Positions 6,623 through 43,332 are shown, counted from the stretch's first letter. The stretch: 64,000 nucleotides of DNA from Escherichia coli (GCF_009931435.1 NZ_CP043414.1); one strand, 5' to 3'. A program made the numbers and translations. Notes: generated from the sequence alone by a model not told the origin.

Positions 6623-7879
6623 TTAGTGGCTAACCGTCTGTGTGCCTGTCGGGACACGAACGTGTTTATATTTGAACATCGCCATGAACGCGAAGGCCAG
6701 AACCACGGAGTAACCTGCGAAAATCAGCCATACGGTCTGCCAGTCGGTAATGCCGTTTTGGGTGTACATCTCAACCACTTTACCGCTCACGATGCCGCCG
6801 AGGATACAGCCGAAGCCGTTAGTCATCATCAGGAACATCCCCTGCGCACTGGCGCGAATTGCCGGGCTAACTTCTTTTTCGACAAACACCGAACCAGAGA
6901 TGTTGAAGAAGTCGAATGCGCAACCGTAAACGATCATCGACAGTACCAGCAGCACGGTACCGAACGGAGTCGGGTCGCCGTAAGCAAACAGCGCAAAACG
7001 CAGGATCCACGCCACGATACTGATCATCATTACGTTCTTAATACCGTAGCGGCTTAAGAAGAACGGGATGGTCAGAATGAACAGGGTTTCAGAGATCTGC
7101 GAAATCGACATGATGATTGACGCATGCTGCACGATGAAGCTGCTGGCAAACATCGGATCTTTGTCGAAGCTGTGCAGGAAGGTGTTACCGAACATGTTGG
7201 TAATCTGCAGTTCCGCGCCCAGCAGCATTGAGAAGATGAAGAAGATTGCCATACGCTTGTTTTTAAACAGCGCGAATGCATCGAGGCCCAGCAGGGTTGT
7301 CCAGCTCTGATTCGCTTGTTGTTTAGCAACCGGAATATGCGGCAGAGTCAGGGTAAACAGAACCAGAACGGCGGAAAGAGCTGCGCCAATATACAGCTGC
7401 ATGTGGCTTAATTCGAAGCCAGACAGGCTCACCACCCACATTGCCATGATAAAGCCGATGGTGCCCCAGATACGGATTGGCGGGAAGTCAGTAACGATAT
7501 CCATCCCGGCATTTTGCAGGCGATAGTATGAGATGGTGTTGATTAACCCAAGCGTTGGCATATAAGCAAACGAGTTAATCAATATCACAAGGAACATCGC
7601 CTCCGGCGTCGTGACCTGTGCTGCCATGAACAGCGTGATAGCGCCAATGGTGTGGCAAATGGCATATACCCATTTCGCACTTAACCATTTGTCGGCCACA
7701 ATCCCCAGCAGCGCAGGCATAAAGACCGCGGCGATACCCAGTGAGCTATAAACTGCGCCAATAGAAGCACCGTCAAACTTCAGGGTAACAAACATATAGG
7801 AACCGAGGGTCGTCAGCCAACTTCCCCACAGACAGAACTGCAGAAAAGAGAGGATTTTCAGCTGCAGCTTAAGATTCAT
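6623..7879 (-). CDS. nupG: Nucleoside:H+ symporter NupG (MFS)
   Basis: ORF trimmed to MNLKLQLKILSFLQF start (418 aa); 12-TM profile. Confidence 0.9.
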   Translation of the reverse strand: MNLKLQLKILSFLQFCLWGSWLTTLGSYMFVTLKFDGASIGAVYSSLGIAAVFMPALLGIVADKWLSAKWVYAICHTIGAITLFMAAQVTTPEAMFLVILINSFAYMPTLGLINTISYYRLQNAGMDIVTDFPPIRIWGTIGFIMAMWVVSLSGFELSHMQLYIGAALSAVLVLFTLTLPHIPVAKQQANQSWTTLLGLDAFALFKNKRMAIFFIFSMLLGAELQITNMFGNTFLHSFDKDPMFASSFIVQHASIIMSISQISETLFILTIPFFLSRYGIKNVMMISIVAWILRFALFAYGDPTPFGTVLLVLSMIVYGCAFDFFNISGSVFVEKEVSPAIRASAQGMFLMMTNGFGCILGGIVSGKVVEMYTQNGITDWQTVWLIFAGYSVVLAFAFMAMFKYKHVRVPTGTQTVSH

Positions 7880-10740: not shown

Positions 10741-11460
10741 ATGAAAAACGACGTCATCTCACCGGAATTTGATGAAAACGGCCGCCCACTGCGCCGTATC
10801 CGTAGTTTTGTGCGCCGCCAGGGGCGACTGACCAAAGGCCAGGAACATGCGCTGGAAAACTACTGGCCGGTGATGGGCGTTGAGTTCAGCGAAGATATGC
10901 TGGATTTCCCTGCGCTTTTTGGCCGTGAAGCGCCAGTGACGCTTGAGATTGGTTTCGGCATGGGGGCGTCGCTGGTGGCAATGGCTAAAGATCGCCCTGA
11001 GCAGGACTTCCTCGGCATTGAAGTGCATTCACCAGGCGTTGGTGCGTGCCTGGCTTCTGCGCATGAAGAGGGCTTAAGCAACCTGCGCGTGATGTGTCAC
11101 GATGCGGTTGAAGTGCTACACAAAATGATTCCTGACAATTCATTGCGCATGGTACAGCTCTTTTTCCCTGACCCGTGGCACAAAGCGCGCCATAATAAAC
11201 GCCGTATCGTTCAGGTGCCGTTTGCCGAACTGGTAAAAAGCAAACTGCAACTGGGGGGCGTATTCCATATGGCGACCGACTGGGAACCTTATGCGGAACA
11301 TATGCTTGAAGTGATGTCTTCGATTGACGGTTATAAAAACCTGTCAGAGAGCAATGATTACGTACCGCGTCCGGCATCACGTCCGGTGACGAAATTTGAA
11401 CAACGTGGTCATCGTCTTGGTCACGGAGTATGGGACTTAATGTTCGAGAGGGTGAAATAA
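10741..11460 (+). CDS. trmB: tRNA (guanine46-N7)-methyltransferase
   Basis: 239 aa; divergent from mutY as in K-12. Confidence 0.9.
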
Positions 11461-27637: not shown

Positions 27638-29614
27638 ATGTCTGACGACATGTCTATGAGTTTGCCTTCGTCAGCGGGCGAACACGGTGTACTACGCTCC
27701 ATGCAGGAGGTTGCAATGAGCTCCCAGGAAGCCAGCAAGATGCTGCGTACTTACAATATTGCCTGGTGGGGCAATAACTATTATGACGTTAACGAGCTGG
27801 GCCACATTAGCGTGTGCCCGGACCCGGACGTCCCGGAAGCTCGCGTCGATCTCGCGCAGTTAGTGAAAACTCGTGAAGCACAGGGTCAGCGTCTGCCTGC
27901 ACTGTTCTGTTTCCCACAGATCCTGCAGCACCGTTTGCGTTCCATTAACGCCGCGTTCAAACGTGCGCGGGAATCCTACGGCTATAACGGCGATTACTTC
28001 CTCGTTTATCCGATCAAAGTTAACCAGCACCGCCGCGTGATTGAATCCCTGATTCATTCGGGCGAACCGCTGGGCCTGGAAGCCGGTTCCAAAGCTGAGT
28101 TGATGGCGGTACTGGCGCATGCTGGCATGACCCGTAGCGTCATCGTGTGCAATGGTTATAAAGACCGCGAATATATCCGCCTGGCATTAATTGGCGAGAA
28201 GATGGGCCATAAGGTCTATCTGGTCATTGAGAAGATGTCAGAAATCGCCATTGTGCTGGATGAAGCAGAACGTCTGAATGTCGTTCCTCGTCTGGGCGTG
28301 CGCGCGCGTCTGGCGTCTCAAGGTTCTGGCAAATGGCAGTCTTCTGGCGGGGAAAAATCGAAGTTCGGCCTGGCGGCGACTCAGGTACTGCAACTGGTTG
28401 AAACCCTGCGTGAAGCCGGACGTCTCGACAGCCTGCAACTGCTGCACTTCCACCTCGGTTCGCAGATGGCGAATATTCGCGATATCGCCACGGGCGTTCG
28501 TGAATCCGCGCGTTTCTATGTGGAACTGCACAAGCTGGGCGTCAATATTCAGTGCTTTGATGTCGGCGGCGGTCTGGGTGTGGACTATGAAGGTACTCGT
28601 TCGCAGTCCGACTGTTCAGTGAATTACGGCCTCAATGAATACGCCAACAACATCATTTGGGCGATTGGCGATGCGTGTGAAGAAAATGGTCTGCCGCATC
28701 CGACAGTAATCACCGAATCAGGTCGTGCGGTGACTGCGCATCACACCGTGCTGGTGTCGAATATCATCGGCGTGGAACGTAACGAATACACGGTGCCGAC
28801 CGCGCCAGCAGAAGACGCACCGCGCGCGCTGCAAAGCATGTGGGAAACCTGGCAGGAGATGCACGAACCGGGAACTCGCCGTTCTCTGCGTGAGTGGTTA
28901 CATGACAGCCAGATGGACTTGCACGATATTCATATCGGCTATTCTTCGGGCACCTACAACCTGCAAGAACGCGCGTGGGCTGAGCAGCTTTATCTGAGCA
29001 TGTGTCATGAAGTGCAAAAGCAGCTGGATCCGCAAAACCGCGCACATCGCCCGATTATCGACGAATTGCAGGAACGTATGGCGGACAAAATGTACGTCAA
29101 CTTCTCGCTGTTCCAGTCGATGCCGGACGCATGGGGGATCGACCAGTTGTTCCCGGTTCTGCCGCTGGCAGGGCTGAATCAAGTTCCGGAGCGGCGCGCC
29201 GTGCTGCTGGATATTACCTGTGACTCTGACGGTGCCATCGACCACTATATCGATGGTGATGGTATTGCCACGACAATGCCTATGCCGGAGTACGATCCAG
29301 AGAATCCGCCGATGCTCGGTTTCTTTATGGTCGGCGCATATCAGGAGATCCTCGGCAACATGCACAACCTGTTTGGTGATACCGAAGCGGTTGATGTGTT
29401 CGTCTTCCCTGATGGTAGCGTAGAAGTGGAACTGTCTGACGAAGGCGATACCGTGGCGGACATGCTGCAATATGTACAGCTCGATCCGAAAACGCTGTTA
29501 ACCCAGTTCCGTGATCAAGTGAAGAAAACCGATCTTGATGCTGAACTGCAACAACAGTTCCTGGAAGAGTTCGAGGCAGGTTTGTACGGTTATACCTATC
29601 TTGAAGATGAATAA
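27638..29614 (+). CDS. speA: Biosynthetic arginine decarboxylase
   Basis: ORF trimmed to [21 protein letters not shown] start (658 aa). Confidence 0.95.
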
Positions 29615-29759
29615 TTAAGATTATTCCGCTATCGGGTCGATTTATTTACGTAAATCGGCCCGCTTTCTTTTTATATATTCTTAAAAATAATTTAGCTGCT
29701 TTCCTTATTGAATAATCTCCCTACAATCGCTGCATTAATTAAATGCAGAGGGAACGGTT

Positions 29760-30491
29760 ATGAAAAAATGGAAAGTACGTAGCGCGTTGGTGGCATTAGT
29801 CGTGCTGTTGGCCGGTTGTTCCAGTAATGCGCAGTATAATAGCAGTGCATCGGGCAATGTCGGCACCGCCTGGGGTGGGGATGTGCACTCAACGGTTCAG
29901 GGCGTATCTGCTGAACGAGCCTGGCGCGATCCGGCAGAGATGATCGTTATTAGTTATTCGACTAATGTTCCTTCCGGCTACGACCGCGTTTATAGCATTC
30001 GTATTAACGAACTTGAATATGCTATTCGCGATGGTAATTTTAATTCTCTACCTATTACGCGGGTTTATAATTCATCAGGTAAAGAACTACGCTATATAGT
30101 CCATGCCAGAGTAGGAATGAATTACCAATTATATGTCCGCAATTACAGTCGTAACACCAACTACGAGATCGTTGCGACAGTTGATGGCCTGGATGTTCTC
30201 AATGGTAAACAAGGTTCCCTGAATAACAACGGCTATATTGTGAATGCCGGGGATTCGTTGGCGATTAAAGGATTCCGCAAAGATAAACATACCGAAGCGG
30301 CTTTTCAGTTCGCCAACGTTGCGGATTCCTACGCAGCCAATTCGGCGCAAGGCGATGTGCGTAATACCGGTGTAATTGGCTTTGCAGCTTTCGAATTGCA
30401 AGGCCCGGCGCAAAACACGCTGCCGCCGTGCTCTGGACAAGCCTTCCCGGCAGATAACAATGGCTATGCGCCGCCACCGTGTCGGAAATAG
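29760..30491 (+). CDS. Predicted lipoprotein of unknown function (not present at this position in K-12 as far as I recall)
   Basis: 243 aa; signal peptide with lipobox LAGC; N/S/Y/G-rich; AT-rich coding sequence with rare ATA/AGT/AGA codons; preceded by an AT-rich gap. Confidence 0.7.
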   Translation: MKKWKVRSALVALVVLLAGCSSNAQYNSSASGNVGTAWGGDVHSTVQGVSAERAWRDPAEMIVISYSTNVPSGYDRVYSIRINELEYAIRDGNFNSLPITRVYNSSGKELRYIVHARVGMNYQLYVRNYSRNTNYEIVATVDGLDVLNGKQGSLNNNGYIVNAGDSLAIKGFRKDKHTEAAFQFANVADSYAANSAQGDVRNTGVIGFAAFELQGPAQNTLPPCSGQAFPADNNGYAPPPCRK

Positions 30492-30626
30492 TAACCTCGC
30501 TTGATGCCTCGCCCATTTAAGGCGATAATTAGCACAAAATTGTGTTTCGCAAATCCAACCCTTCCTCGTCGGGCCTAACGACGCGGAAGGGTTTTTTTAT
30601 ATCGACTTTGTAATAGGAGTCCACCC

Positions 30627-31547
30627 ATGAGCACCTTAGGTCATCAATACGATAACTCACTGGTTTCCAACGCCTTTGGTTTTTTACGCCTGCCGATGAA
30701 CTTCCAGCCGTATGACAGCGATGCTGACTGGGTAATTACCGGCGTGCCGTTCGATATGGCCACTTCTGGTCGTGCGGGTGGACGCCACGGTCCAGCGGCG
30801 ATCCGTCAGGTTTCGACGAATCTGGCCTGGGAACACAACCGCTTCCCGTGGAATTTCGACATGCGCGAGCGTCTGAACGTGGTGGACTGTGGCGATCTGG
30901 TGTATGCCTTCGGCGATGCTCGTGAGATGAGCGAGAAGCTGCAGGCGCATGCTGAAAAGCTGCTGGCTGCCGGTAAGCGTATGCTCTCCTTCGGTGGTGA
31001 CCACTTTGTCACGCTGCCACTGCTGCGTGCTCATGCGAAGCATTTCGGCAAAATGGCGCTGGTACACTTTGACGCCCACACCGATACCTATGCGAACGGT
31101 TGTGAATTTGACCACGGCACTATGTTCTATACCGCGCCGAAAGAAGGTCTGATCGACCCGAATCACTCCGTACAGATTGGTATTCGTACCGAGTTTGATA
31201 AAGACAACGGCTTTACCGTACTGGACGCCTGCCAGGTGAACGATCGCAGCGTGGATGACGTTATCGCCCAGGTGAAACAGATTGTAGGTGATATGCCAGT
31301 TTACCTGACTTTTGATATCGACTGCCTGGATCCTGCTTTCGCGCCGGGCACCGGTACGCCGGTGATCGGCGGCCTGACCTCCGATCGCGCCATTAAACTG
31401 GTACGTGGCCTGAAAGATCTCAACATTGTTGGGATGGACGTAGTGGAAGTGGCTCCGGCATACGATCAGTCGGAAATCACCGCTCTGGCAGCAGCGACGC
31501 TGGCGCTGGAGATGCTGTATATTCAGGCGGCGAAAAAGGGCGAGTAA
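30627..31547 (+). CDS. speB: Agmatinase
   Basis: 306 aa [43 protein letters not shown]; arginase-fold metal ligands. Confidence 0.95.
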
Positions 31548-31805
31548 TTCGCTAAATATTTCCCGGTGTGCATAGTCATGCCGGGAAACATTCATCAGTG
31601 CGATATATGTTTTTATATTTCTACGCGACTTTTTCTTAGCTCTGTTCACCTGCCTGGTTGTTTCAGAACATAAGTAATATTTAAAACACGAATATTCAGA
31701 AACCAGATTGTCACAAGGAATATTAATTCTTCCCGGTAGTTCTCATTCTTACGTTTACAAATAGTGTATGTTCTGAACAACTATTGTTTTTTAAGCGGTA
31801 AAGAA

Positions 31806-34604
31806 ATGAGACGGATTGATGTTATTTGCAAGGAGCTGGAGCGACTGACGTATGGGCTGGAACTGTCTGATTTAGCGAAGGAGAAAGCATTTACTGCTGA
31901 GGCGATTGGTTTTAACCTTGGGCTGGCACGTAACTCGGTTAGTAAAGATCTTAATCAATTATGGAATGAAGGCCTGGTGGTAAAAAGTCAGGGACGTCCT
32001 GTTTTTTTTCTACATCGTCACGCACTAGAATTGCTCATTAATCGAAAACTGGATGATTGCGAATGCATAGTTCATTCAGTGGCTAGTTTATTGCCAAAGA
32101 AAGAAAAATATACAGATGATGATCCGTTTTCCGGACTTATCGGATACGACCGTAGTCTCCGTGATGCGGTAGAAAAAGGCCGCGCAGCGGTGCTCTATCC
32201 CCACGGACTGCATGTGCTGTTAACCGGGGCATCTGGTGTTGGCAAAACATTCTTTGCTGAGTTAATGCATTGCTTCGCTTGTAAGCACACCATAGGTTCG
32301 CCACCTCCGTTGGTTTACTTTAACTGTGCCGAATATGCTCATAATCCGGAGTTGCTTTCCTCTCATCTGTTTGGTCACCATAAGGGGGCATTTACCGGGG
32401 CAAGCGAGAATAAAACGGGGCTGGTGGAGCAAGCTGACGGAGGTTATTTACTTCTGGATGAAGTGCATCGCCTCCCGTATGAAGGACAAGAGAAGCTCTT
32501 TTCTATTCTCGATAAAGGTGAATACCGCCCGCTTGGTTCAAGTGGGCCAACATATTCAATTTCGGTGCGCCTTATTTGCGCCACCACAGAGTTGGTCAAC
32601 TCCTCACTATTGCGTACCTTCCAGCGGCGTATCCAGGTGTATATCGACTTACCGGGTATTCGCCAGCGTTCGGTCGAGGAGCAACTCGAATTGATTGTCA
32701 GCTTCTTCCAGCGCGAAAGTCGTAAAATTGAACGTACCATAAGCCTTGATAAAACCCTTTTGCACTGGTTGTTAAGTAAACCCCTGGAAGGCAATATCGG
32801 CCAGCTTAAAAGCGATATTCAGTTCTTGTGCGCGCAGGCGTGGGCGTCGGGAATGACCGAGCGCAATGATACACTAGAGTTAGATAAACGACTGGCGGAG
32901 ATGCCGTTTAATACCACGCCGGAGCAGCGCCTGCTGGTCGATGCGTTGTTTGGCGGTAAAGATCGTTTGAACGTGGATGCGCGTACGTTGCCCGCGTTAA
33001 AAAATTCGTTGGCGACCAGCGCGGAAATAGAAGAGAGCGATCTGTTTTACAGTTTCCTGACTCGTGAATATGTCAATCTGCGCAACAGTAACGTGCCGCC
33101 CGCAGAAACGCTGGCTATCCTGAAAAACAAACTCAGTTCGATTTTTGAATACGGTCTCTATAGCCGCCATAGTACGGCGCATCCACCGCGCTATGGCGAT
33201 CAAATTGAGGAGCGGGTGACGTTGCTGATCGGTTACGTGGAGCAGGTATTAGGATTTACGTTGCCAGAAAACCTGGCGAACCCGTTACGTAAACACTTTC
33301 TTGCGCTGATTGGCTATGTGCGGCGAGGGCTTATACCTCAACTCTATTCCTCCAGCTTGATTCTGGATCGCTGTAAAGATGAGTATGACAATGCCACGCT
33401 TCTGTGCCGCAAAATCAATGAGCTGCTGCATATTCAGTGCCCGGCGATGGAGGTGGTCTGGCTGTGCCTGTTCCTGAAAGAGTGTCGCCACTACCGCCAG
33501 CGCATCGACACCAGCCCGGATTGCGGCGTGATTCTAATCGCTCACGGTGCGACCACCGCAACGAGCCAGGCGCAATATGTGAATCGGGTGCTGGAGCGCG
33601 ATCTGTTCTACGCAATTGATATGCCATTTGAGCAGTCGGTGCATGACACCCTGGAAACCCTGACCCGGATGATTCAGGACCGGTGCTGGCAGCGGCTGAT
33701 ACTGATGGTGGATATCGGATCGCTGGTTCATTTTGGCAGCACCATCAGCAAGCTGTTCCAGATTGACGTTCTGTTGTTGCCAAATATCACTCTGACCAGC
33801 CTGCTGGAGGTGGGGCTGGATTTAAGCTACGAAACTGGGGATCTATCGCAATTGGCTGTGCTTATGCAGAGTAAAAATATCCCTTGTCGGCTCTGCACGC
33901 CGCAGCAAGAGAGCGGTGGCAAAGTGCTGGTTATCTCATGTATAACCGGAATGGGGACGGCAGAAAAGATCAAAAAAGTGCTGGAGGAGAGCTTTGGCGA
34001 GCTGATGTCGCAGGACACGCGTATGGTGATTCTCGACTATAACGAGGTGCGCAGCCTGGAGCGTATTCAGCAGGCGCTTAATGCCAGTGAACGGCTGGCA
34101 GGGATCGTCGGCACCTTCCAGCCGGGACTGCCGGATATTCCGTTTATCTCGCTGGAGGAACTGTTTTCCGAGCAAGGGCCGGAGCTGGTGCTTAGCCTGC
34201 TGACTCCGGATCTCTCAAGCAGCGAGCGCCGACTGGAGATGGAGCGCAGCGCCATGCGCTTTATCAGCGCGCTGACCATGGAGAGCATCATCAACCATAT
34301 TTCGGTGCTCAACCCGCAGCGAATTCTGAAAGAGATCGAGGACGTTCTGAACCACTTAACCAACACGCTCTCCCTGAAACCGAGCCGCCAGGTGACACTA
34401 CGTTTTCTGATCCATTGCTGCTGCATGGTCGAGCGTATCGTGATTAACCGCAAACCGTTACAGATGGCGCTGGAAAACCGGCTTGATCTGGACGCTCGTG
34501 CCTTTAGCGTCATCAAATCCTCCTTTTTGCCGATTGAAGAGGCTTACGCTATCCGTTTATCGGACGCAGAATATTTTTATATCTACGAACTGCTCTACAG
34601 CTGA
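31806..34604 (+). CDS. Sigma-54-dependent LevR-type transcriptional activator with PTS regulation domains (DgaR-like)
   Basis: Start chosen at MRRIDVICKELERL (ORF extends 14 codons further upstream); Walker A GASGVGKT; GAFTGA motif (HHKGAFTGASENKTG); about 930 aa, a size that accommodates PRD/EII-like regulatory domains. Confidence 0.8.
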   Translation: MRRIDVICKELERLTYGLELSDLAKEKAFTAEAIGFNLGLARNSVSKDLNQLWNEGLVVKSQGRPVFFLHRHALELLINRKLDDCECIVHSVASLLPKKEKYTDDDPFSGLIGYDRSLRDAVEKGRAAVLYPHGLHVLLTGASGVGKTFFAELMHCFACKHTIGSPPPLVYFNCAEYAHNPELLSSHLFGHHKGAFTGASENKTGLVEQADGGYLLLDEVHRLPYEGQEKLFSILDKGEYRPLGSSGPTYSISVRLICATTELVNSSLLRTFQRRIQVYIDLPGIRQRSVEEQLELIVSFFQRESRKIERTISLDKTLLHWLLSKPLEGNIGQLKSDIQFLCAQAWASGMTERNDTLELDKRLAEMPFNTTPEQRLLVDALFGGKDRLNVDARTLPALKNSLATSAEIEESDLFYSFLTREYVNLRNSNVPPAETLAILKNKLSSIFEYGLYSRHSTAHPPRYGDQIEERVTLLIGYVEQVLGFTLPENLANPLRKHFLALIGYVRRGLIPQLYSSSLILDRCKDEYDNATLLCRKINELLHIQCPAMEVVWLCLFLKECRHYRQRIDTSPDCGVILIAHGATTATSQAQYVNRVLERDLFYAIDMPFEQSVHDTLETLTRMIQDRCWQRLILMVDIGSLVHFGSTISKLFQIDVLLLPNITLTSLLEVGLDLSYETGDLSQLAVLMQSKNIPCRLCTPQQESGGKVLVISCITGMGTAEKIKKVLEESFGELMSQDTRMVILDYNEVRSLERIQQALNASERLAGIVGTFQPGLPDIPFISLEELFSEQGPELVLSLLTPDLSSSERRLEMERSAMRFISALTMESIINHISVLNPQRILKEIEDVLNHLTNTLSLKPSRQVTLRFLIHCCCMVERIVINRKPLQMALENRLDLDARAFSVIKSSFLPIEEAYAIRLSDAEYFYIYELLYS

Positions 34605-34668
34605 TCCCCTGATTTACGGGGCTTAAGGCCTCATCCAATCTCTTTTCCTCTGAGCGTGACACAAATTC

Positions 34669-34683
34669 TGGCACGTCCTTTGC
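34669..34683 (+). promoter_or_regulatory. Sigma-54 (RpoN) -24/-12 promoter for the PTS operon
   Basis: TGGCAC-GTCCT-TTGC matches the TGGCAC-N5-TTGC consensus exactly, about 40 nt upstream of the EIIA start and just downstream of the activator gene. Confidence 0.7.
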
Positions 34684-34722
34684 TCCTGACGAAATGTAAA
34701 CACTGGAGCAAAGGAGGCTATT

Positions 34723-35151
34723 TTGACCACAACTGTATCTATTCATCCGTTACCTGAAATTTTGCTGCTAACTCACGGCGGCTGGGGGCTGCAGCTCTGC
34801 AACAGTCTGCGCATGGTGATGGGCGAAATCGAAGGCGTGACGGAAATCGCGCTGATGCCTGTCGATACGCTGGGCGAGTTTTACCAGCGCGTCGAAGCCG
34901 TGGTGAAAACCATGCCAGAAGGTTCGCTTATCGTGACCGATTTTATCGGCGGCACCACCTCTAACGTGGCGGCGCGGCTGAGCGCCGATTATCCGGTGGC
35001 GGTGATCTCCGGGCTTAATGCCTCGCTGCTGCTGGAGGCGCTGGACAAGCGCGAACATGGCCCACTGACCGCCTGCGTGGCCGATCTGGTGGAAGCTGGG
35101 CGCAACAGTTGCCTGGACGTCGTCTCCCATATTCGTCAATTACAACAGTAA
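34723..35151 (+). CDS. PTS mannose-family EIIA component (DgaA-like)
   Basis: 142 aa; TTG start 5 nt after AAGGAGG; EIIA-Man-like N-terminal region (LLLTHGGWG) with candidate phosphorylatable His. Confidence 0.75.
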   Translation: MTTTVSIHPLPEILLLTHGGWGLQLCNSLRMVMGEIEGVTEIALMPVDTLGEFYQRVEAVVKTMPEGSLIVTDFIGGTTSNVAARLSADYPVAVISGLNASLLLEALDKREHGPLTACVADLVEAGRNSCLDVVSHIRQLQQ

Positions 35152-35161
35152 GGAAAATCGT

Positions 35162-35647
35162 ATGGCAAACATCGTGTTATGTCGCATTGACAGCCGTCTT
35201 ATCCACGGACAGGTGGTGACGAAGTGGGTGGGGCAATCCCAGGCCAACCGTATTGCGGTGGTCAGCGACGAGCTGGATGCCGATCCGTTTATGAAAAATA
35301 TCTACCTGATGGCCGCGCCGCCGAATATCAAAGTGGACTGCTTCAGCAACCAGAGCTTCGCGGCCGCGTGGAAAGACAACCAGCTGGGCGACGGCAACGT
35401 GCTGGTGCTGTTCCCGTCGCTGGCGGCGATTCAGGAAGCGGTGCAGCAGGGCTTTGACGTGGCTGATATTCAGGTTGGCGGCTTAGGCGGCGGGCCAAAC
35501 CGTAAAGCGGTGTTCCAGAACATAACTCTGGATGAAAAAGACGTTGGCATTCTTAACGATTTGAAAAGTCGCGGCATTAAGGCTGTTTTCCAGACCATCC
35601 CGGAAGATAAGCCGCAGTCGCTGGACGATATCCTGAAAAAATTCTGA
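35162..35647 (+). CDS. PTS mannose/sorbose-family EIIB component (DgaB-like)
   Basis: 161 aa; MANIVLCRIDSRLIHGQVVTKW is the EIIB-Man N-terminal signature including the phospho-His. Confidence 0.8.
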   Translation: MANIVLCRIDSRLIHGQVVTKWVGQSQANRIAVVSDELDADPFMKNIYLMAAPPNIKVDCFSNQSFAAAWKDNQLGDGNVLVLFPSLAAIQEAVQQGFDVADIQVGGLGGGPNRKAVFQNITLDEKDVGILNDLKSRGIKAVFQTIPEDKPQSLDDILKKF

Positions 35648-35672
35648 CCCTCTGAACATGGGATAACAAATT

Positions 35673-36422
35673 ATGGATACCTTACTTTTTGCAAGCCTGA
35701 TGGGGCTGTATTACTGGTTTGCCCGGTTGCGCCTTGGCTATACCTTCTCCGCCATGCTGTTACAGCCAGTGGTGGTGGCGGTCTTTGTCGGCCTGCTGCT
35801 CGGCAACATGCCTGCGGCGATGATTATCGGCGCGGGGATGCAGTTGGTATATCTGGGTGTGACCTCAACGCCAGGCGGCAATGTGCCGTCAGACCCGGCG
35901 CTGGCGGCCTGTATCGCCATTCCTATCGCCGTTAAGGCCAATATGGACCCGAACCTGGCGATTGCACTGGCGATTCCATTTGGCGTTATCGGCGTATTCC
36001 TCGACCAGTTGCGTCGCACGCTAAATGCGGCCTGGGTGCATATGGCCGATAAACACGCGGAAACGGCCAATATGTCAGCCATTATGCGCTGCGCCTTTCT
36101 CTACCCGGCGCTGCTGGGGCTGGTGCTACGTTTCCCAGTGGTGTTCGCCGCCAACTACTTCGGCCAGAACGTAGTGGAAAGTTTCCTCAAGCTGATGCCG
36201 CACTGGCTGACCCACTCGTTTGAAATCATGGGCGGGATTCTCCCGGCGCTGGGCTTCGCCATCACCATTATGGTGATTGGTAAAAAGAGCCTACTGCCGT
36301 GGTTTATCGGCGGATTCTTCGCGGTGCTGTACCTCAAGGTGGACATCATGGCGATGGCGATTTTCGGCACCTGCGTGGCCTTCCTGATTAAAGGCCTGGC
36401 GAAAAATGAAGGAGCGGCATAA
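35673..36422 (+). CDS. PTS mannose-family EIIC component (DgaC-like)
   Basis: 249 aa polytopic membrane protein in EIIB-EIIC-EIID order. Confidence 0.8.
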   Translation: MDTLLFASLMGLYYWFARLRLGYTFSAMLLQPVVVAVFVGLLLGNMPAAMIIGAGMQLVYLGVTSTPGGNVPSDPALAACIAIPIAVKANMDPNLAIALAIPFGVIGVFLDQLRRTLNAAWVHMADKHAETANMSAIMRCAFLYPALLGLVLRFPVVFAANYFGQNVVESFLKLMPHWLTHSFEIMGGILPALGFAITIMVIGKKSLLPWFIGGFFAVLYLKVDIMAMAIFGTCVAFLIKGLAKNEGAA

Positions 36423-37279
36423 TGAGCGGCGGCGTAATGCAGCATGAACTGGTGGAGCGCGCGCGGGAGTCCGGGGCGCTGACCAAAGCGGATATCACCA
36501 AAGCGTGGTTTATCTACTGGCTTGGCGCGGAAGTTTCCAGCTCCTATGAGCGTTTACAGAGCCTGATTTTCTGCGCCTCGATGACGCCGATTATTAAAAA
36601 GCTCTATCCGCAAAAGGAGGAGCAGGTGGAGGCGTTAAAACGCCATCTGAACTTCTTCAACTCAGAGCAGACGTTTGGCGCGGTGATCCAGGGGATCTCC
36701 ATCGCCATGGAAGAGCAAAAGACCCGCGGCGAGGCGATTAACGATGCCTCTATCACCGGGATTAAAACCGGCCTGATGGGGCCGCTGGCCGGAATGGGCG
36801 ACTCCATCATCTGGGCGGCCGTGATGCCGCTGTTGATTGCTATTTTTATCCCGTTCGCCGCCAATGGCAGCGCAATGGGCGGTATTTTGCCGCTGATTCT
36901 CTACCCGGCGATTACGCTGGCAATCAGCTACGGCATGGTGCACAAGGGCTATACGCTAGGGCGCGATTCGATTATCAGCCTGCTGCAGGGGGGGCGCATC
37001 AAGGAGCTTATCTACGGCGCTAACGTACTGGGGCTTATCATGATGGGTGCGCTATCCGCGAGCTTTGTCAAGATAACCTCACCTTTAAAAATTAGCGCAC
37101 TGAAAGGCTCTGAAGTGGTGGTACAGCAGATTCTTGACTCCATCGCGCCCGGCCTACTGCCGCTGGCGGCAGTGTTCGCGATCTACTTCTATCAGGTGAA
37201 AAAGGGACCGCGTTACACCACGATTTTGCTGTCAATTGTGGCGTTGAGCGTGGTCTGCTCGCTGCTGGGAGTGCTGTAA
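36422..37279 (+). CDS. PTS mannose-family EIID component (DgaD-like)
   Basis: 285 aa; start shares one nt with the EIIC stop; soluble N-terminal part then membrane helices, typical of EIID-Man. Confidence 0.8.
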   Translation: MSGGVMQHELVERARESGALTKADITKAWFIYWLGAEVSSSYERLQSLIFCASMTPIIKKLYPQKEEQVEALKRHLNFFNSEQTFGAVIQGISIAMEEQKTRGEAINDASITGIKTGLMGPLAGMGDSIIWAAVMPLLIAIFIPFAANGSAMGGILPLILYPAITLAISYGMVHKGYTLGRDSIISLLQGGRIKELIYGANVLGLIMMGALSASFVKITSPLKISALKGSEVVVQQILDSIAPGLLPLAAVFAIYFYQVKKGPRYTTILLSIVALSVVCSLLGVL

Positions 37280-37282
37280 GCC

Positions 37283-38392
37283 ATGACGCAGAATATCTAT
37301 CAACAACTGGGGCTGAAACAAGTGATTAACGCTTGCGGTAAGATGACGATTCTCGGCGTCTCCAGTGTCGCGCCGGAGGTGATGCAGGCCACCGCGCGTG
37401 CGGCATCCTCTTTCGTGGAGATTGATCAGCTGGTGGACAAAACCGGCGAGCTGGTCTCTCGCTTTACCGGGGCGGAGGATAGCTACGTTACCTCCTGCGC
37501 CTCGGCAGGGATCGCCATCGCTATCGCCGCCGCCATTACCCGCGGCGACAAGGCCCGGGTGGCGCTCATGCCGGATAGCTCCGGCATGGCCAATGAAGTG
37601 GTGATGCTGCGCGGCCATAACGTCGATTACGGCGCATCGATCCTCAGCGCGATCCGCTTAGGCGGCGGGCGCGTGGTGGAGGTGGGGTCAAGTAACCTGG
37701 CGGCTCTCTGGCAGCTGGAGAGTGCCATTACCGACGCGACCGCCGCGCTGCTGTATGTGAAGTCGCATCACTGCGTGCAGAAGGGGATGTTGAACATCGA
37801 GGACTTCGCCCAAGTCGCGCAGATGCACAACCTGCCGTTGATTGTCGATGCCGCCGCCGAAGAGGATTTACGTGCCTGGGTGGTGAGCGGAGCGGATATG
37901 GTGGTCTACAGCGGCGCAAAAGCCTTTAACGCGCCTACCTCCGGGTTTATCACTGGTAAAAAAATCTGGATTGCAGCCTGTAAAGCGCAGCATTACGGCA
38001 TTGCCAGGGCGATGAAAATCGGCAAGGAGAACATGGTTGGGCTGGTTTACGCGCTGGAGAATTATCACCAGGGGCAGGCAATCATCACCGCGGAACAGCT
38101 CCAGCCAGTGGTTGAAGCGATTTCTGCGATTCACGGGTTAACGGCTGATATTGAGCAGGATGAAGCCGGGCGTGCAATCTGGCGTATTCGTATTCGGGTA
38201 AATGCGCAAGAATTTGGAGTTGCCGCTCGCGTCGTCGAAGCGCAACTGCGTGGTGGCGATATCGCGATTTATACACGGCGGTATAACCTCCACCAGGGCG
38301 TTTTTAGCCTTGATCCGCGTACGGTGGCGGATGGGGAGATGGCGCTTATCGTGGCGCGACTGAAGGAGATTGCAGATCATGCAAAAGATTAA
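37283..38392 (+). CDS. SelA-like PLP-dependent enzyme, putative sugar-acid-6-phosphate ammonia-lyase (DgaE-like)
   Basis: 369 aa; Gly/Ala-rich fold-type I PLP-like core (SCASAGIAIAIAAAI, SGAKAF with candidate PLP lysine); follows the PTS genes. Confidence 0.65.
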   Translation: MTQNIYQQLGLKQVINACGKMTILGVSSVAPEVMQATARAASSFVEIDQLVDKTGELVSRFTGAEDSYVTSCASAGIAIAIAAAITRGDKARVALMPDSSGMANEVVMLRGHNVDYGASILSAIRLGGGRVVEVGSSNLAALWQLESAITDATAALLYVKSHHCVQKGMLNIEDFAQVAQMHNLPLIVDAAAEEDLRAWVVSGADMVVYSGAKAFNAPTSGFITGKKIWIAACKAQHYGIARAMKIGKENMVGLVYALENYHQGQAIITAEQLQPVVEAISAIHGLTADIEQDEAGRAIWRIRIRVNAQEFGVAARVVEAQLRGGDIAIYTRRYNLHQGVFSLDPRTVADGEMALIVARLKEIADHAKD

Positions 38393-39122
38393 TTTCTATC
38401 ATAATCGTGTGGCAATTAATGTGCTGGCGAAAGATATCGCCAATGCCCGTGAAATCTATGACGCCGCCGAAGGCCACGCGGTGATTGGCGTGCTTTCCGC
38501 GCAGTTCTCCTCGGTGGATGAGGGGATCCAGGAAGTTAAACGTTGGATGGCGGAAATACCGTCCATTTCAGTAGGTCTGGGGGCGGGTGACCCGGCGCAG
38601 TATTACAAAGCTGCGATGATTGCGGCGCAGATTCATCCAGCACACGTTAACCAGACCTTTACCGGTTGTGGTTTCGCGGCAGGCGCGCTTGCGACGACGG
38701 GCGGTGAGCAGACCCATGTCAACGCGCTGGTTAGCCCGACGGGAACGCCGGGCGAAGTGCTGATTTCCACTGGCGTTAGCAGCAGCCAGGGTACGCCTGC
38801 CCGCGTATCCTGCGATACGGCAGTGCGAATGATGCTAGATATGGGCGCACACGCGGCGAAGTTCTTTCCGATGGGCGGCGAGAAGTCGCTTCCGGAGCTA
38901 TACGCGCTGGCGACCACGGCGGCGCGCAATGGTATGACGCTGATTGAGCCAACCGGCGGGATTGATTTGGATAACTTCAGTGTGATTCTAAAAACTTGTC
39001 TGGAGGCGGGTGTGCCGCGCATTATGCCGCATGTTTACAGCTCGATTATAGACCCTGATACGGGATATACCCGACCGGATGATGTAGCCGTTTTGCTGAA
39101 TAAAGTGAAATCACTACTCTGA
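38379..39122 (+). CDS. Putative KDGP/KDPG-type aldolase (DgaF-like), family assignment tentative
   Basis: About 247 aa from ATG at 38379 (the track ORF starts 9 nt earlier at a TTG); overlaps the end of the preceding gene; last gene of the operon. Confidence 0.55.
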   Translation: MQKINFYHNRVAINVLAKDIANAREIYDAAEGHAVIGVLSAQFSSVDEGIQEVKRWMAEIPSISVGLGAGDPAQYYKAAMIAAQIHPAHVNQTFTGCGFAAGALATTGGEQTHVNALVSPTGTPGEVLISTGVSSSQGTPARVSCDTAVRMMLDMGAHAAKFFPMGGEKSLPELYALATTAARNGMTLIEPTGGIDLDNFSVILKTCLEAGVPRIMPHVYSSIIDPDTGYTRPDDVAVLLNKVKSLL

Positions 39123-39177
39123 TCGGGGATTCAGGCGTTACCGACCTACAATTATGTTGTAGATCGGTATGTCTGAC

Positions 39178-39936
39178 TTATTTTATCCCATCCGCGCTCA
39201 TACGATCGCGAATATGCTGGGCGCGTTCGGCGGATGCCGGATGGTCGTCAAACATTGAGCTTTGGCGGCCTTCTTCCAGTTTCGCCAGTTTTTCAAAGCT
39301 GGTGGCAAGACCAGCCGGGCTGATGCCGCGTTGGCGCAGAAGATCGTAAGAATAATCATCGGCTTCTGCTTCCTGGCGCTGGGAGAATTGCGAATTGACT
39401 AATTTCTCGCCCAGATCACCAAGTTGCGATTGCGATAAACTGCCGACAATCCCGCCCGCAGAGGCTGCCGCGACTCTCACGGCGTTGGTACCTAATGCAA
39501 CTTGCATCCCTTTCTTCACATGGCCTAACGCGACGTGCCCCATTTCGTGACCGATCACCGCTTCGACTTCGTTATCCGTCATCATATCCATTAGCCCGCT
39601 ATAGACGCGGATACAGCCGTTAGCCATTGCAAAGGCGTTCACATCCTTCGCCATATACACTTTGTAATTCACCGGCTGACCGTTGATATTGTTGCCTAGC
39701 GCATTGGCAATAGTTGTCAGACGTTTAGCGTATTCGCTATTGGCTGGCGCAATCGTCGCCTTGCTGTCCATCTCCTGACATGCCTGATCGCTCAGGGCTT
39801 TCACCTGCGCATCACTCAAACTGTAAGCCTGAAAAGCTTCCGCTCCTGATGAGAGCAGTCCGTTGGAGTCCATATTCTGGCAACCGGTCAGTACCGTTGC
39901 CACGCTCATTGCTACCAATAAGGCGCGAATTTTCAT
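39178..39936 (-). CDS. loiP: Periplasmic/outer-membrane M48 metalloprotease LoiP (YggG)
   Basis: ORF trimmed to MKIRALLVAMSVATVLTGC start (252 aa); HEMGH zinc motif. Confidence 0.9.
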   Translation of the reverse strand: MKIRALLVAMSVATVLTGCQNMDSNGLLSSGAEAFQAYSLSDAQVKALSDQACQEMDSKATIAPANSEYAKRLTTIANALGNNINGQPVNYKVYMAKDVNAFAMANGCIRVYSGLMDMMTDNEVEAVIGHEMGHVALGHVKKGMQVALGTNAVRVAAASAGGIVGSLSQSQLGDLGEKLVNSQFSQRQEAEADDYSYDLLRQRGISPAGLATSFEKLAKLEEGRQSSMFDDHPASAERAQHIRDRMSADGIK

Positions 39937-40213
39937 GTTTTCTCTTCCGCACAAGGTCAGGATTATTCTAAAAATGCGCCGTTTGCAGGTGAATCGACGC
40001 TCAGTCTCAGTATAAGGAAAAGCGCAGCGGACGGGCGAGCAGATTGCGCAACATGCGAGCATGATCCAGAGATTTCTGAAGCGGCAAAAGGATGTTCCAT
40101 GTACATGACGCGCGGCTTGCGGTAAATTGTTGGCAAATTTTCCGGCGTAGCCCAAAACGCGCTGTCGTCAAGTCGTTAAGGGCGTGCCCTTCATCATCCG
40201 ATCTGGAGTCAAA

Positions 40214-42205
40214 ATGTCCTCACGTAAAGAGCTTGCCAATGCTATTCGTGCGCTGAGCATGGACGCAGTACAGAAAGCCAAATCCGGTCACCCGGGTGCC
40301 CCTATGGGTATGGCTGACATTGCCGAAGTCCTGTGGCGTGATTTCCTGAAACACAACCCGCAGAATCCGTCCTGGGCTGACCGTGACCGCTTCGTGCTGT
40401 CCAACGGCCACGGCTCCATGCTGATCTACAGCCTGCTGCACCTCACCGGTTACGATCTGCCGATGGAAGAACTGAAAAACTTCCGTCAACTGCATTCCAA
40501 AACTCCGGGCCACCCGGAAGTGGGTTACACCGCTGGTGTGGAAACCACTACAGGTCCGCTGGGTCAGGGTATTGCCAATGCAGTCGGTATGGCGATTGCA
40601 GAAAAAACGCTGGCGGCACAGTTTAACCGTCCGGGCCACGACATCGTCGACCACTACACCTACGCCTTCATGGGCGACGGCTGCATGATGGAAGGCATCT
40701 CCCATGAAGTTTGCTCTCTGGCGGGTACGCTGAAGCTGGGTAAACTGATTGCGTTCTACGATGACAACGGTATCTCTATCGATGGTCACGTTGAAGGCTG
40801 GTTCACCGACGACACCGCAATGCGTTTCGAAGCTTACGGCTGGCACGTTATTCGCGGCATCGACGGTCATGACGCGGCATCCATCAAACGCGCAGTAGAA
40901 GAAGCGCGCGCAGTGACTGACAAACCGTCCCTGCTGATGTGCAAAACCATCATCGGTTTCGGTTCACCGAACAAAGCCGGTACGCACGACTCCCACGGTG
41001 CGCCGCTGGGCGACGCTGAAATTGCCCTGACCCGCGAACAGCTGGGCTGGAAATATGCACCGTTCGAAATCCCGTCTGAAATCTATGCTCAGTGGGATGC
41101 GAAAGAAGCAGGCCAGGCGAAAGAATCCGCATGGAACGAGAAATTCGCTGCTTACGCCAAAGCTTATCCGCAGGAAGCCGCTGAATTTACCCGCCGTATG
41201 AAAGGCGAAATGCCGTCTGACTTCGATGCCAAAGCGAAAGAATTCATCGCTAAACTGCAGGCTAATCCGGCGAAAATCGCCAGCCGTAAAGCGTCTCAGA
41301 ATGCGATTGAAGCGTTCGGCCCGCTGTTGCCGGAATTCCTCGGCGGCTCTGCTGACCTGGCACCGTCTAACCTGACCCTGTGGTCTGGTTCTAAAGCAAT
41401 CAACGAAGATGCTGCGGGTAACTACATCCACTATGGTGTTCGCGAGTTCGGTATGACCGCGATTGCTAACGGTATCTCCCTGCACGGTGGCTTCCTGCCG
41501 TACACCTCCACCTTCCTGATGTTCGTGGAATACGCACGTAACGCCGTACGTATGGCTGCGCTGATGAAACAGCGTCAGGTGATGGTTTACACCCACGACT
41601 CCATCGGTCTGGGCGAAGATGGCCCGACTCACCAGCCGGTAGAGCAGGTCGCTTCTCTGCGCGTGACCCCGAACATGTCCACATGGCGTCCGTGTGACCA
41701 GGTTGAATCCGCGGTCGCGTGGAAATACGGCGTTGAGCGTCAGGACGGCCCGACTGCGCTTATCCTCTCCCGTCAGAACCTGGCGCAGCAGGAACGCACT
41801 GAAGAGCAGCTGGCAAACATCGCGCGCGGTGGTTATGTGCTGAAAGACTGTGCCGGTCAGCCGGAACTGATCTTCATCGCTACCGGTTCTGAAGTTGAAC
41901 TGGCGGTTGCTGCCTACGAAAAACTGACTGCTGAAGGCGTGAAAGCGCGCGTGGTTTCCATGCCGTCTACCGACGCATTCGACAAGCAGGATGCGGCTTA
42001 CCGTGAGTCTGTACTGCCGAAAGCGGTTACTGCACGCGTTGCGGTGGAAGCTGGCATTGCTGACTACTGGTACAAGTATGTTGGCCTGAACGGTGCTATC
42101 GTCGGCATGACCACCTTCGGTGAATCTGCTCCGGCAGAGCTGCTGTTTGAAGAGTTCGGCTTCACCGTTGACAATGTTGTTGCGAAAGCAAAAGAACTGC
42201 TGTAA
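40214..42205 (+). CDS. tktA: Transketolase 1
   Basis: ORF trimmed to [35 protein letters not shown] start (663 aa). Confidence 0.95.
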
Positions 42206-42213
42206 TCGGTAAG

Positions 42214-42420
<207 letters not shown>

Positions 42421-42423
42421 TTT

Positions 42424-43332
42424 TTACTTAGTAGAGATAAACGGAACTGTACTGCCGGGGATCATGGTATCGGGTAGCTTACCGTCCCAACGCTCAGCAG
42501 TGGTGAGGGCAACAAGTCCGGGATTATCCCGCAGAGCTTCACCGCGCAGGCGGATCGCTTCTGCTTCAGCCGCACTTTTTAAACGAATAGTTTCAGCCTC
42601 TGCCGCGCCTCTTACGCGAATAGTCTCAGCTTCTGCTTTGGCTGCCGCCAGTTTACTGTCTGCTTCTGCCTGGGCCTGAGTTACCGCTATTTGCGCCTGG
42701 ATTTTCTCTGTTTCCAGATTTTGCTTACGTGTGGCAATGGCGACTTCTGCTTTCATTCGATCTTCAATCGATTTTTCATAAGCGTCAGAAAAATCAATAT
42801 TTTCAATCTGGACACCATCAATCACCACCGGGCCAACAACGGCTTTACGCATTGCATTTTGCAGATCCTGAACCAGTTTTGTACGATCCTGTACCGCGCT
42901 GATGGCGGTATATTGGCCGAAAACGTTCTCCAGTTGGGTTGGCAGCTGGCGGACGATCAGACGCTCTTTTAAAGATTCAATGGTGTTGTAGGTTGTATAA
43001 ACTGCGCCAGCTTCTGAAGGCTTAATATGAAAACTAACCGACACGGTCATTTGTGCCGGTTGCTGGTCGCGGCTGTAGGCCTGTAATCCCTGATAAACCA
43101 CAGCCTGATTACGCGTGGAAATTTTCTCTACGCTTTCCATAAAAGGGATCTTAAAACCCAGACCCGGCTCGGCAACTTTTACGATTTTTCCGTAGCGCAG
43201 CAAAATGCCGCGTTCACCTTCATTAACGGTGTAATACGAGAGAAATGGCAGCACAACCACGGTAAGCACGCCAATGGCGATAGCAATAGATTTTTGTGGG
43301 CGAAATGAGGTTATTGAAACAGGCGCTTTCAT
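42424..43332 (-). CDS. SPFH/band-7 (HflC/prohibitin-like) membrane protein (not a K-12 gene at this position, from memory)
   Basis: 302 aa; N-terminal TM (IAIAIGVLTVVVLPFL), then SPFH-like core and Ala/Glu-rich coiled-coil repeats (AEAETIRVRGAAEAETIRLKSAAEAEAIRLRGEA). Confidence 0.75.
   Translation of the reverse strand: MKAPVSITSFRPQKSIAIAIGVLTVVVLPFLSYYTVNEGERGILLRYGKIVKVAEPGLGFKIPFMESVEKISTRNQAVVYQGLQAYSRDQQPAQMTVSVSFHIKPSEAGAVYTTYNTIESLKERLIVRQLPTQLENVFGQYTAISAVQDRTKLVQDLQNAMRKAVVGPVVIDGVQIENIDFSDAYEKSIEDRMKAEVAIATRKQNLETEKIQAQIAVTQAQAEADSKLAAAKAEAETIRVRGAAEAETIRLKSAAEAEAIRLRGEALRDNPGLVALTTAERWDGKLPDTMIPGSTVPFISTK

Follow-up and report, generated by a model that had tools for sequence, protein, structure and literature searches.

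Three described systems from outside Escherichia are among those closest to the locus examined here. In Salmonella enterica serovar Typhimurium, the genes dgaR and dgaABCDEF (STM3773-STM3766; Miller et al., 2013, as cited in PMC4987338) serve the amino-sugar acid D-glucosaminate: the phosphotransferase system (PTS) DgaABCD yields D-glucosaminate-6-phosphate, which the enzyme DGL (DgaE) converts to 2-dehydro-3-deoxy-6-phosphogluconate (KDPG) and DgaF to pyruvate and glyceraldehyde-3-phosphate (PMC9529869). The regulator DgaR is activated by HPr~P phosphorylation next to its first PTS regulation domain (PRD1) and inhibited by enzyme II (EII)-dependent phosphorylation in PRD2, and LevR-type systems in general place a mannose-family PTS operon under such dual PTS phosphorylation control (PMC4987338). 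Among these, Bacillus subtilis LevR/levDEFG-sacC shares with DgaR the succession of N-terminal DNA-binding domain, sigma-54 AAA+ domain with GAFTGA, PRD, EIIA-like domain and PRD, but has another substrate and other catabolic enzymes, and the sequence relationship is distant. The Salmonella gfrR-gfrABCDEF system for fructoselysine and glucoselysine likewise combines a LevR-type activator, a mannose-family PTS, two catabolic enzymes and a sigma-54 promoter (PMC4987338), while differing from Dga in its enzymes and substrate. Here we analysed a 64,000-nucleotide stretch of an Escherichia coli genome (NZ_CP043414.1; hereafter, the window) and conclude that the 7.6 kb block at positions 31548-39177, between speB and loiP, is very probably the Escherichia orthologue of Salmonella dgaR-dgaABCDEF, and would form a self-contained catabolic cassette for D-glucosaminate.

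The block, which is the exact gap between the speB and loiP stop codons, contains seven intact, full-length open reading frames (ORFs), all on the + strand; dgaR is followed by A, B, C, D, E and F, the arrangement of the Salmonella locus (Table 1). The species-representative genome scan did not return Salmonella enterica, and the S. Typhimurium locus was recovered with its neighbours via the exact sequence of the crystallised enzyme, PDB 7LC0. Compared over their full lengths with the S. Typhimurium proteins by BLASTP, the window proteins are 87.7% (DgaR), 85.2% (DgaA), 91.3% (DgaB), 96.8% (DgaC), 96.5% (DgaD), 85.9% (DgaE) and 84.6% (DgaF) identical. Three of them also exceed the cut-offs of NCBIfam equivalog models: DagR (1515 bits, cut-off 1400), DgaE (688 bits, cut-off 600) and DagF (352 bits, cut-off 300). 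Relative to E. coli O26, first and second codon positions of the dga genes differ by 0-1.6% and third positions by 1.4-6.8%, as under purifying selection. Judged from these sequences, the seven window proteins are orthologous to Salmonella Dga, which is more than resemblance. A first-pass annotation of the window had recognised the architecture of the Salmonella dgaR/dgaABCDEF locus, consisting of a LevR-type activator with a GAFTGA motif, four mannose-family PTS components, a SelA-like pyridoxal phosphate (PLP) enzyme and an aldolase-like gene. All of this was upheld: the activator is a 932-amino acid (aa) protein, the remaining genes have the corresponding family matches, the BLASTP comparison that the annotation had proposed placed all seven proteins at 84.6-96.8% identity and not at the low identity to Dga that would have counted against it, and to this are added the equivalog matches and a conserved sigma-54 promoter (described below).

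Gene starts were assigned as follows. For dgaR we used the ATG at 31806, as do RefSeq and 27 orthologues, in preference to the GTG at 31764 with which the longest ORF begins; the dgaF start is the ATG at 38379, which corrects the ORF list, and dgaA has a TTG start preceded by AAGGAGG. The Salmonella locus is like the window in gene number, order and orientation (85-97% protein identity), in the TTG start of dgaA, in the DgaE active-site residues, which are identical, and in its sigma-54 promoter core together with a conserved GTGACACAAATTC element directly upstream of that core. It differs in its location, between yicS and an EamA-family gene and next to mgtCB, in an extra ~100 bp element resembling repetitive extragenic palindromic (REP) sequences between promoter and dgaA, and in having Arg at DgaE residue 226, where the window has Lys. 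Within E. coli, the locus of O26:H11 strain 11368 (ECO26_RS21125 to ECO26_RS21095) has the same site and gene set at 97.9% DNA identity, and that of strain 2020CK-00188 is 99.8% identical. RefSeq already names dagR, dgaE and dagF at this site in the 562 E. coli carriers, and that locus differs from the window by sequence divergence only.

The catalytic and presumed phosphorylation residues that were checked in the PTS subunits and enzymes are conserved. DgaA has a THG motif with His18 and DgaB an RIDSRLIHGQ motif (LIHGQ) with His15, which, from established knowledge of IIAB-Man, we take to be the phospho-histidines. In mannose-family PTS permeases IIC and IID form the sugar-translocating part, here DgaC and DgaD. 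DgaE matches the crystallised Salmonella enzyme (PDB 7LC0/7LCE) with E = 1.9e-207, and His162, His163, Lys213, Arg301, Arg332 and Arg346 are invariant in 82 homologues; these include the loop histidines His162/His163 and the phosphate-binding Arg301/332/346 named for the Salmonella enzyme (PMC9529869). The PLP lysine (SGAK) is Lys213 by our count, where PMC9529869 writes Lys-217. The Salmonella counterpart of DgaF belongs to Pfam PF07071, and the window protein matches structural-genomics aldolases of the same family, the best being PDB 3NZR (5.9e-68).

To the sigma-54 AAA+ domain of DgaR (Pfam Sigma54_activat PF00158, 9.7e-40) belong Walker A (141-148), GAFTGA (194-199) and Walker B (215-219) motifs, and Pfam places PRD domains at 475-558 (weak, E = 0.0054) and 846-930 (4.4e-08). 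Between them, residues 572-667 match PDB 3GX1 (7e-05) and 3GDW (8.5e-04), deposited as Lin1832 protein and sigma-54 interaction domain protein; in this central segment Pfam EIIA-man was not detected, and BLASTP against DgaA gave no match, so the EIIA-like assignment draws on these weak PDB matches. DgaR thus combines the features of a LevR-type bacterial enhancer-binding protein (bEBP), namely GAFTGA and Walker motifs in a sigma-54 AAA+ domain at its centre and, in a C-terminal regulatory region, two PRDs around an EIIA-like domain, each with a conserved histidine (497, 580, 870). His580 (activating) and His870 (inhibitory) are the natural candidates for phosphorylation sites, and we take them to be the equivalents of LevR His585 and His869. 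Both are among five histidines (497, 580, 613, 642 and 870) that are invariant in 27 orthologues. GfrR is without the HPr-target histidine (PMC4987338), and window DgaR retains it as His580.

Upstream of dgaR, an alignment of six species delimits a conserved region in which the motif TAGTGTATGTTCTGA is invariant except at its second base, A here and C in Cedecea. A consensus scan of 31548-31805 found no canonical sigma-70 promoter for dgaR, and the position of this promoter is therefore deduced from conservation alone. An inverted repeat also lies upstream of dgaR (31662-31685 and 31754-31777, with cores TTCAGAACAT and ATGTTCTGAA); its downstream arm holds TGTTCTGAACA, a perfect palindrome around a central T that is nearly invariant across genera. 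This repeat may be a dgaR operator or promoter element.

The predicted sigma-54 (-24/-12) promoter of dgaABCDEF ends 39 nt (38 intervening bases) upstream of the dgaA TTG start. A match to TGGCA[CT]-N5-TTGC precedes dgaA in 37/37 Enterobacterales loci examined, and its Salmonella equivalent, TGGCACAACCTTTGCT, appears in a list of sigma-54 binding sites (Samuels et al., PMC3844500). One-mismatch matches in the window are overall as numerous as expected by chance, so it is position and conservation that argue for this promoter. A GC-rich hairpin follows dgaR at the same position in most orthologous loci, its sequence not being conserved. We also considered a CRP-type site in the element that abuts the -24 box, and set it aside as a poor match by eye. 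In Salmonella and several Citrobacter loci a REP-like insert of ~100 bp (7186-7300 of the Salmonella locus) lies in the 5' untranslated region of dgaA, between the sigma-54 promoter and the start; it is missing from the window (34685-34722). The promoter-to-start distance is 147-154 nt in REP-carrying loci versus 54-56 nt in Escherichia and others.

By orthology we infer that the Salmonella scheme, with regard to both substrate and regulation, would also apply in this organism. DgaR would be made from its own promoter and would be activated when HPr~P phosphorylates the histidine of the central EIIA-like domain (His580). Without substrate, the Dga EII complex would phosphorylate the PRD2 histidine (His870) and inhibit the activator; during D-glucosaminate transport the phosphoryl groups of EII would go to the sugar, and DgaR would stay active and drive open-complex formation at the sigma-54 promoter. 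DgaABCD would import and phosphorylate the substrate to D-glucosaminate-6-phosphate, from which DgaE would remove water and ammonia to give KDPG, and DgaF would cleave KDPG to pyruvate and glyceraldehyde-3-phosphate. Given that DgaE would remove ammonia and DgaF cleave KDPG, D-glucosaminate would supply carbon and nitrogen.

Several observations weigh against this reading. No experiment on any Escherichia strain was found in the searchable literature. The four PTS subunits match only generic mannose-family NCBIfam models, at scores below those models' cut-offs, and identity to Salmonella is therefore the sole ground for the substrate assignment of the PTS. Arg226 of Salmonella DgaE, which manual docking proposed to lie near the substrate carboxylate (PMC9529869), is Lys in the window enzyme. 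Finally, a Biolog test with D-glucosaminic acid is reported as positive for the E. coli type strain and negative for K-12 (PMC4334874), despite which the speB-loiP site of the type strain, ATCC 11775, is empty (NZ_CP033092.2 901298-901502); because of this, a D-glucosaminate phenotype is not a clean read-out of the locus. The generic PTS matches, the DgaE residue and Biolog positivity in a strain without the locus would all suit a cassette of the same architecture for a different substrate, for example a 2-amino aldonic acid akin to D-glucosaminate or a different amino sugar. We hold this to be very improbable: IIC and IID are 96.8% and 96.5% identical to the Salmonella subunits, and none of the substrate-binding arginines of DgaE varies, nor does either of its two histidines. 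Position 226 differs between family members, with Lys its commonest residue among the 82 homologues, including Citrobacter with the Salmonella genomic context; R226K as a specificity change was rejected on this ground, and we attach no meaning to it. It is slightly less probable again that the locus is a cryptic or decaying remnant, no longer expressed. Some E. coli copies are indeed damaged, one by an ISKpn26-family insertion in dgaR and another by being partial, but the window copy has seven full-length ORFs, its promoter, ribosome-binding site and catalytic residues are intact, and its substitutions are overwhelmingly synonymous.

To examine where the cassette occurs, we compared the block and its junctions with complete E. 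coli genomes. It is present in 562/5426, always in single copy and always chromosomal. Of these carriers, 561 have an intact left junction and all 562 an intact right junction, so that the site, speB-loiP, is fixed. O26 and O111 Shiga-toxin strains make up many of the carriers listed, and the frequency of ~10% is therefore probably shaped by sampling. Queried with both junctions, E. coli genomes whose site is empty show homology up to exactly 31547 and again from 39178. In the K-12 derivative MC1061, speB and loiP are adjacent and convergent with 205 bp of REP-type repeats between them, in agreement with the first-pass annotation, which has the two genes as neighbours in K-12. Among species-representative genomes, 36 Enterobacterales loci were returned, most with the full R-to-F cassette, in genera including Citrobacter, Klebsiella, Cedecea, Trabulsiella, Yokenella, Pantoea, Erwinia, Hafnia, Serratia and Rahnella, and Firmicutes and Actinobacteria have DgaE/DgaF pairs of 43-51% identity. 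One contig, under the label Chryseobacterium sp. 18061, has a dga locus of Enterobacterales type whose match values and coordinates are exactly those found for Citrobacter sp. 18056 of the same project; this looks like contamination or mislabelling in the public records. Escherichia sp. MOD1-EC7003 and Cedecea neteri likewise carry the cassette between speB and loiP; in Salmonella and 13 loci labelled Citrobacter it lies between yicS and the EamA-family gene, and in other genera in other contexts. The conserved part of the cassette runs from ~80-110 bp ahead of the dgaR ATG to the stop codon of dgaF.

How the cassette came to this site can be weighed from its composition, ends and divergence. 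A genomic island recently acquired from another genus via a mobile element would fit its absence from ~90% of complete E. coli genomes, the different chromosomal sites in different genera and the AT-rich left edge: GC content is 34.9% in the speB-dgaR spacer, 46% in the first 600 nt of dgaR and 54.5-57.8% from dgaA to dgaF (third codon position GC, GC3, 0.60-0.73), a contrast already pointed out by the first-pass annotation. The whole block, at 53.5%, is nevertheless barely above the 51.6% of the remaining window. That annotation had also seen no integrase, insertion sequence (IS) element or obvious repeats bounding the block, and the window ORF list indeed has neither integrase nor IS ORFs, no repeat, direct or inverted, was found to pair the two block ends, and no Rfam or tRNA feature lies inside it; the block thus shows none of the marks of an integrative genomic island (integrase or transposase, tRNA or att site, flanking direct repeats), and every carrier genome has it at the same site. 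It differs by ~1-4% from E. coli O26 or MOD1-EC7003, the same order as its flanks (~1-7%), which form a 0.4-7.4% mosaic in sliding windows across a 20 kb region. The nearest non-Escherichia loci are only ~78-89% identical in DNA, and third-position divergence from Cedecea is similar in the block (27-49%) and the flanking core genes (32-53%). Recent acquisition is, in view of these data, unlikely. Low third-position divergence of the block relative to speA/speB had been considered as a sign of recent lateral exchange, an idea dropped because in the 20 kb mosaic the block is not uniquely low. The divergence pattern against Escherichia and Cedecea fits an old locus lost or exchanged by homologous recombination within the genus. 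We read the cassette in this way, as an old locus that was probably lost or exchanged by ordinary homologous recombination. In the genus it amounts to a presence/absence polymorphism at a single, fixed place in the chromosome rather than a mobile island.

The features identified in and beside the block include a candidate enhancer for DgaR. The DgaR enhancer was listed as not known in a 2016 review (PMC4987338). Only 64 bp separate the dgaR stop codon from the -24 box, and a conventional enhancer must therefore overlap the dgaR coding sequence. Across 27 Enterobacterales orthologues, synonymous variation in dgaR reaches its gene-wide minimum in codons 857-903 (permutation p = 0.0055 for the minimum window). 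Within this segment are the invariant blocks CAGGTGACACT (34389-34399), AAACCGTTACAGATG (34452-34466) and TTTAG(C/T)GTCATCAAA (34503-34517), and the degenerate codons of Thr864 (ACA), Arg877 (CGT), Leu885 (TTA) and Val902 (GTC) are invariant. TGACACT and its reverse complement lie 114 bp apart within codons 857-903, and a third copy, GTGACAC, abuts the -24 box (25/27 loci). We propose, as a hypothesis only, that the enhancer is embedded in the 3' end of dgaR. Two points count against it, namely that synonymous-site conservation is the only evidence for the placement and that the candidate lies ~155-295 bp upstream of the -24 box, farther than most bEBP sites. Taken jointly, the two proposals, that DgaR would act through TGACAC-type repeats in the dgaR 3' end (~34374-34514) with a further copy at the -24 box, and that the cassette would be an ancient speB-loiP presence/absence polymorphism common to Escherichia and Cedecea and not acquired, are offered tentatively, and we think it rather doubtful that both hold.

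Table 1. Features of the dga block and its immediate flanks (window coordinates).
Feature	Position	Strand	Evidence
speB (agmatinase), left core flank	30627-31547	+	NCBIfam agmatinase, 521.8 bits
Terminator-like hairpin just past speB stop, TTTCCCGG...CCGGGAAA	31559-31588	+	read from sequence
Conserved dgaR-proximal region, presumed dgaR promoter and 5' untranslated region	31727-31805	+	alignment of six species
dgaR (RefSeq dagR), LevR-type sigma-54 enhancer-binding protein, 932 aa	31806-34604	+	NCBIfam DagR equivalog
Candidate enhancer (upstream activating sequence) in dgaR codons 857-903	34374-34514		inferred from synonymous conservation
Hairpin past dgaR stop codon (CCCC TGATTTAC GGGG)	34606-34621	+	read from sequence
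Conserved non-coding element GCGTGACACAAATTC, abuts -24 box	34654-34668	+	GTGACAC here in 25/27 orthologous loci
Predicted sigma-54 promoter of dgaABCDEF, TGGCACGTCCTTTGCT (TGGCAC-N5-TTGCT)	34669-34684	+	sole zero-mismatch match in 64 kb window
dgaA, mannose-family PTS EIIA	34723-35151	+	EIIA-man model match
dgaB, mannose-family PTS EIIB	35162-35647	+	TIGR00854 match
dgaC, PTS EIIC membrane subunit	35673-36422	+	EII-Sor and AgaW family matches
dgaD, PTS EIID membrane subunit	36422-37279	+	TIGR00828 match
dgaE, SelA-related PLP enzyme	37283-38392	+	NCBIfam DgaE equivalog
dgaF, KDPG aldolase, KDGP_aldolase family	38379-39122	+	NCBIfam DagF equivalog
Hairpin between convergent dgaF and loiP, CCGACCTACAA...TTGTAGATCGG	39141-39167		read from sequence
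loiP (metalloprotease), right core flank	39178-39936	-	NCBIfam LoiP, 440.9 bits

Of the two hairpins at the block ends, the one past speB is restricted to the Escherichia lineage, being present in Escherichia sp. MOD1-EC7003 and not in Cedecea or Salmonella, and the one between dgaF and loiP is common to MOD1-EC7003 only. The loiP entry in Table 1 is the 252-aa gene and not the 325-aa ORF of the ORF list. Directly beside the dga site lies a second indel polymorphism, a 243-aa lipoprotein-like ORF (MKKWKVRSALVALVVLLAGC...) between speA and speB (29760-30491, +), with a low GC3 of 0.47, no NCBIfam match and RefSeq names that vary between hypothetical, membrane protein and lipoprotein. This ORF is not in K-12; a query spanning it is at least 80% covered in 3551/5426 complete E. 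coli genomes and only 48% covered in K-12-type genomes.

More widely, core genes around the block (27638-42205) have only ~95-97% DNA identity to typical E. coli. Compared with the genome labelled E. coli 2020CK-00188, identity is 99.3-99.7% for speA, loiP and tktA and 98.4% for speB. The window seems to derive from a divergent lineage of Escherichia, perhaps a cryptic clade. Between tktA and cmtB there is a prohibitin-family gene (42424-43332, -), which is found in 2020CK-00188 and the E. coli type strain and not in K-12 MC1061 or O26:H11 11368, and just downstream of tktA is a match to the Rfam small RNA ES036 (CssrF; 42312-42354, +; 48.9 bits, gathering score 37.6). Two genes, trmB (10741-11460) and yggR (18347-19402), are intact ORFs in the window and frameshifted pseudogenes in the annotation of 2020CK-00188, the closest genome.

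The dga system is already known, being characterised in Salmonella and annotated by RefSeq at this very site in E. coli, and for this reason the locus is of low interest and without novelty; with pathway, enzyme structure and regulation established in Salmonella, it matters little beyond correct annotation. What may be new here are the Cedecea neteri site match, the hint of an embedded enhancer, the mismatch between phenotype and locus in the type strain, and a qualification of the literature. If the embedded enhancer is real, it would supply the missing DgaR binding site. If the polymorphism is ancient, D-glucosaminate use in E. coli would be partly dga-independent, since the type strain is Biolog-positive without the locus. 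The sigma-54 regulon paper describes E. coli as having no orthologue of this activator (PMC3844500), a statement that needs qualifying: K-12 indeed has none, but ~10% of complete E. coli genomes do. For the genus, the cassette could serve as a minor niche or nutrient marker that separates Escherichia lineages.

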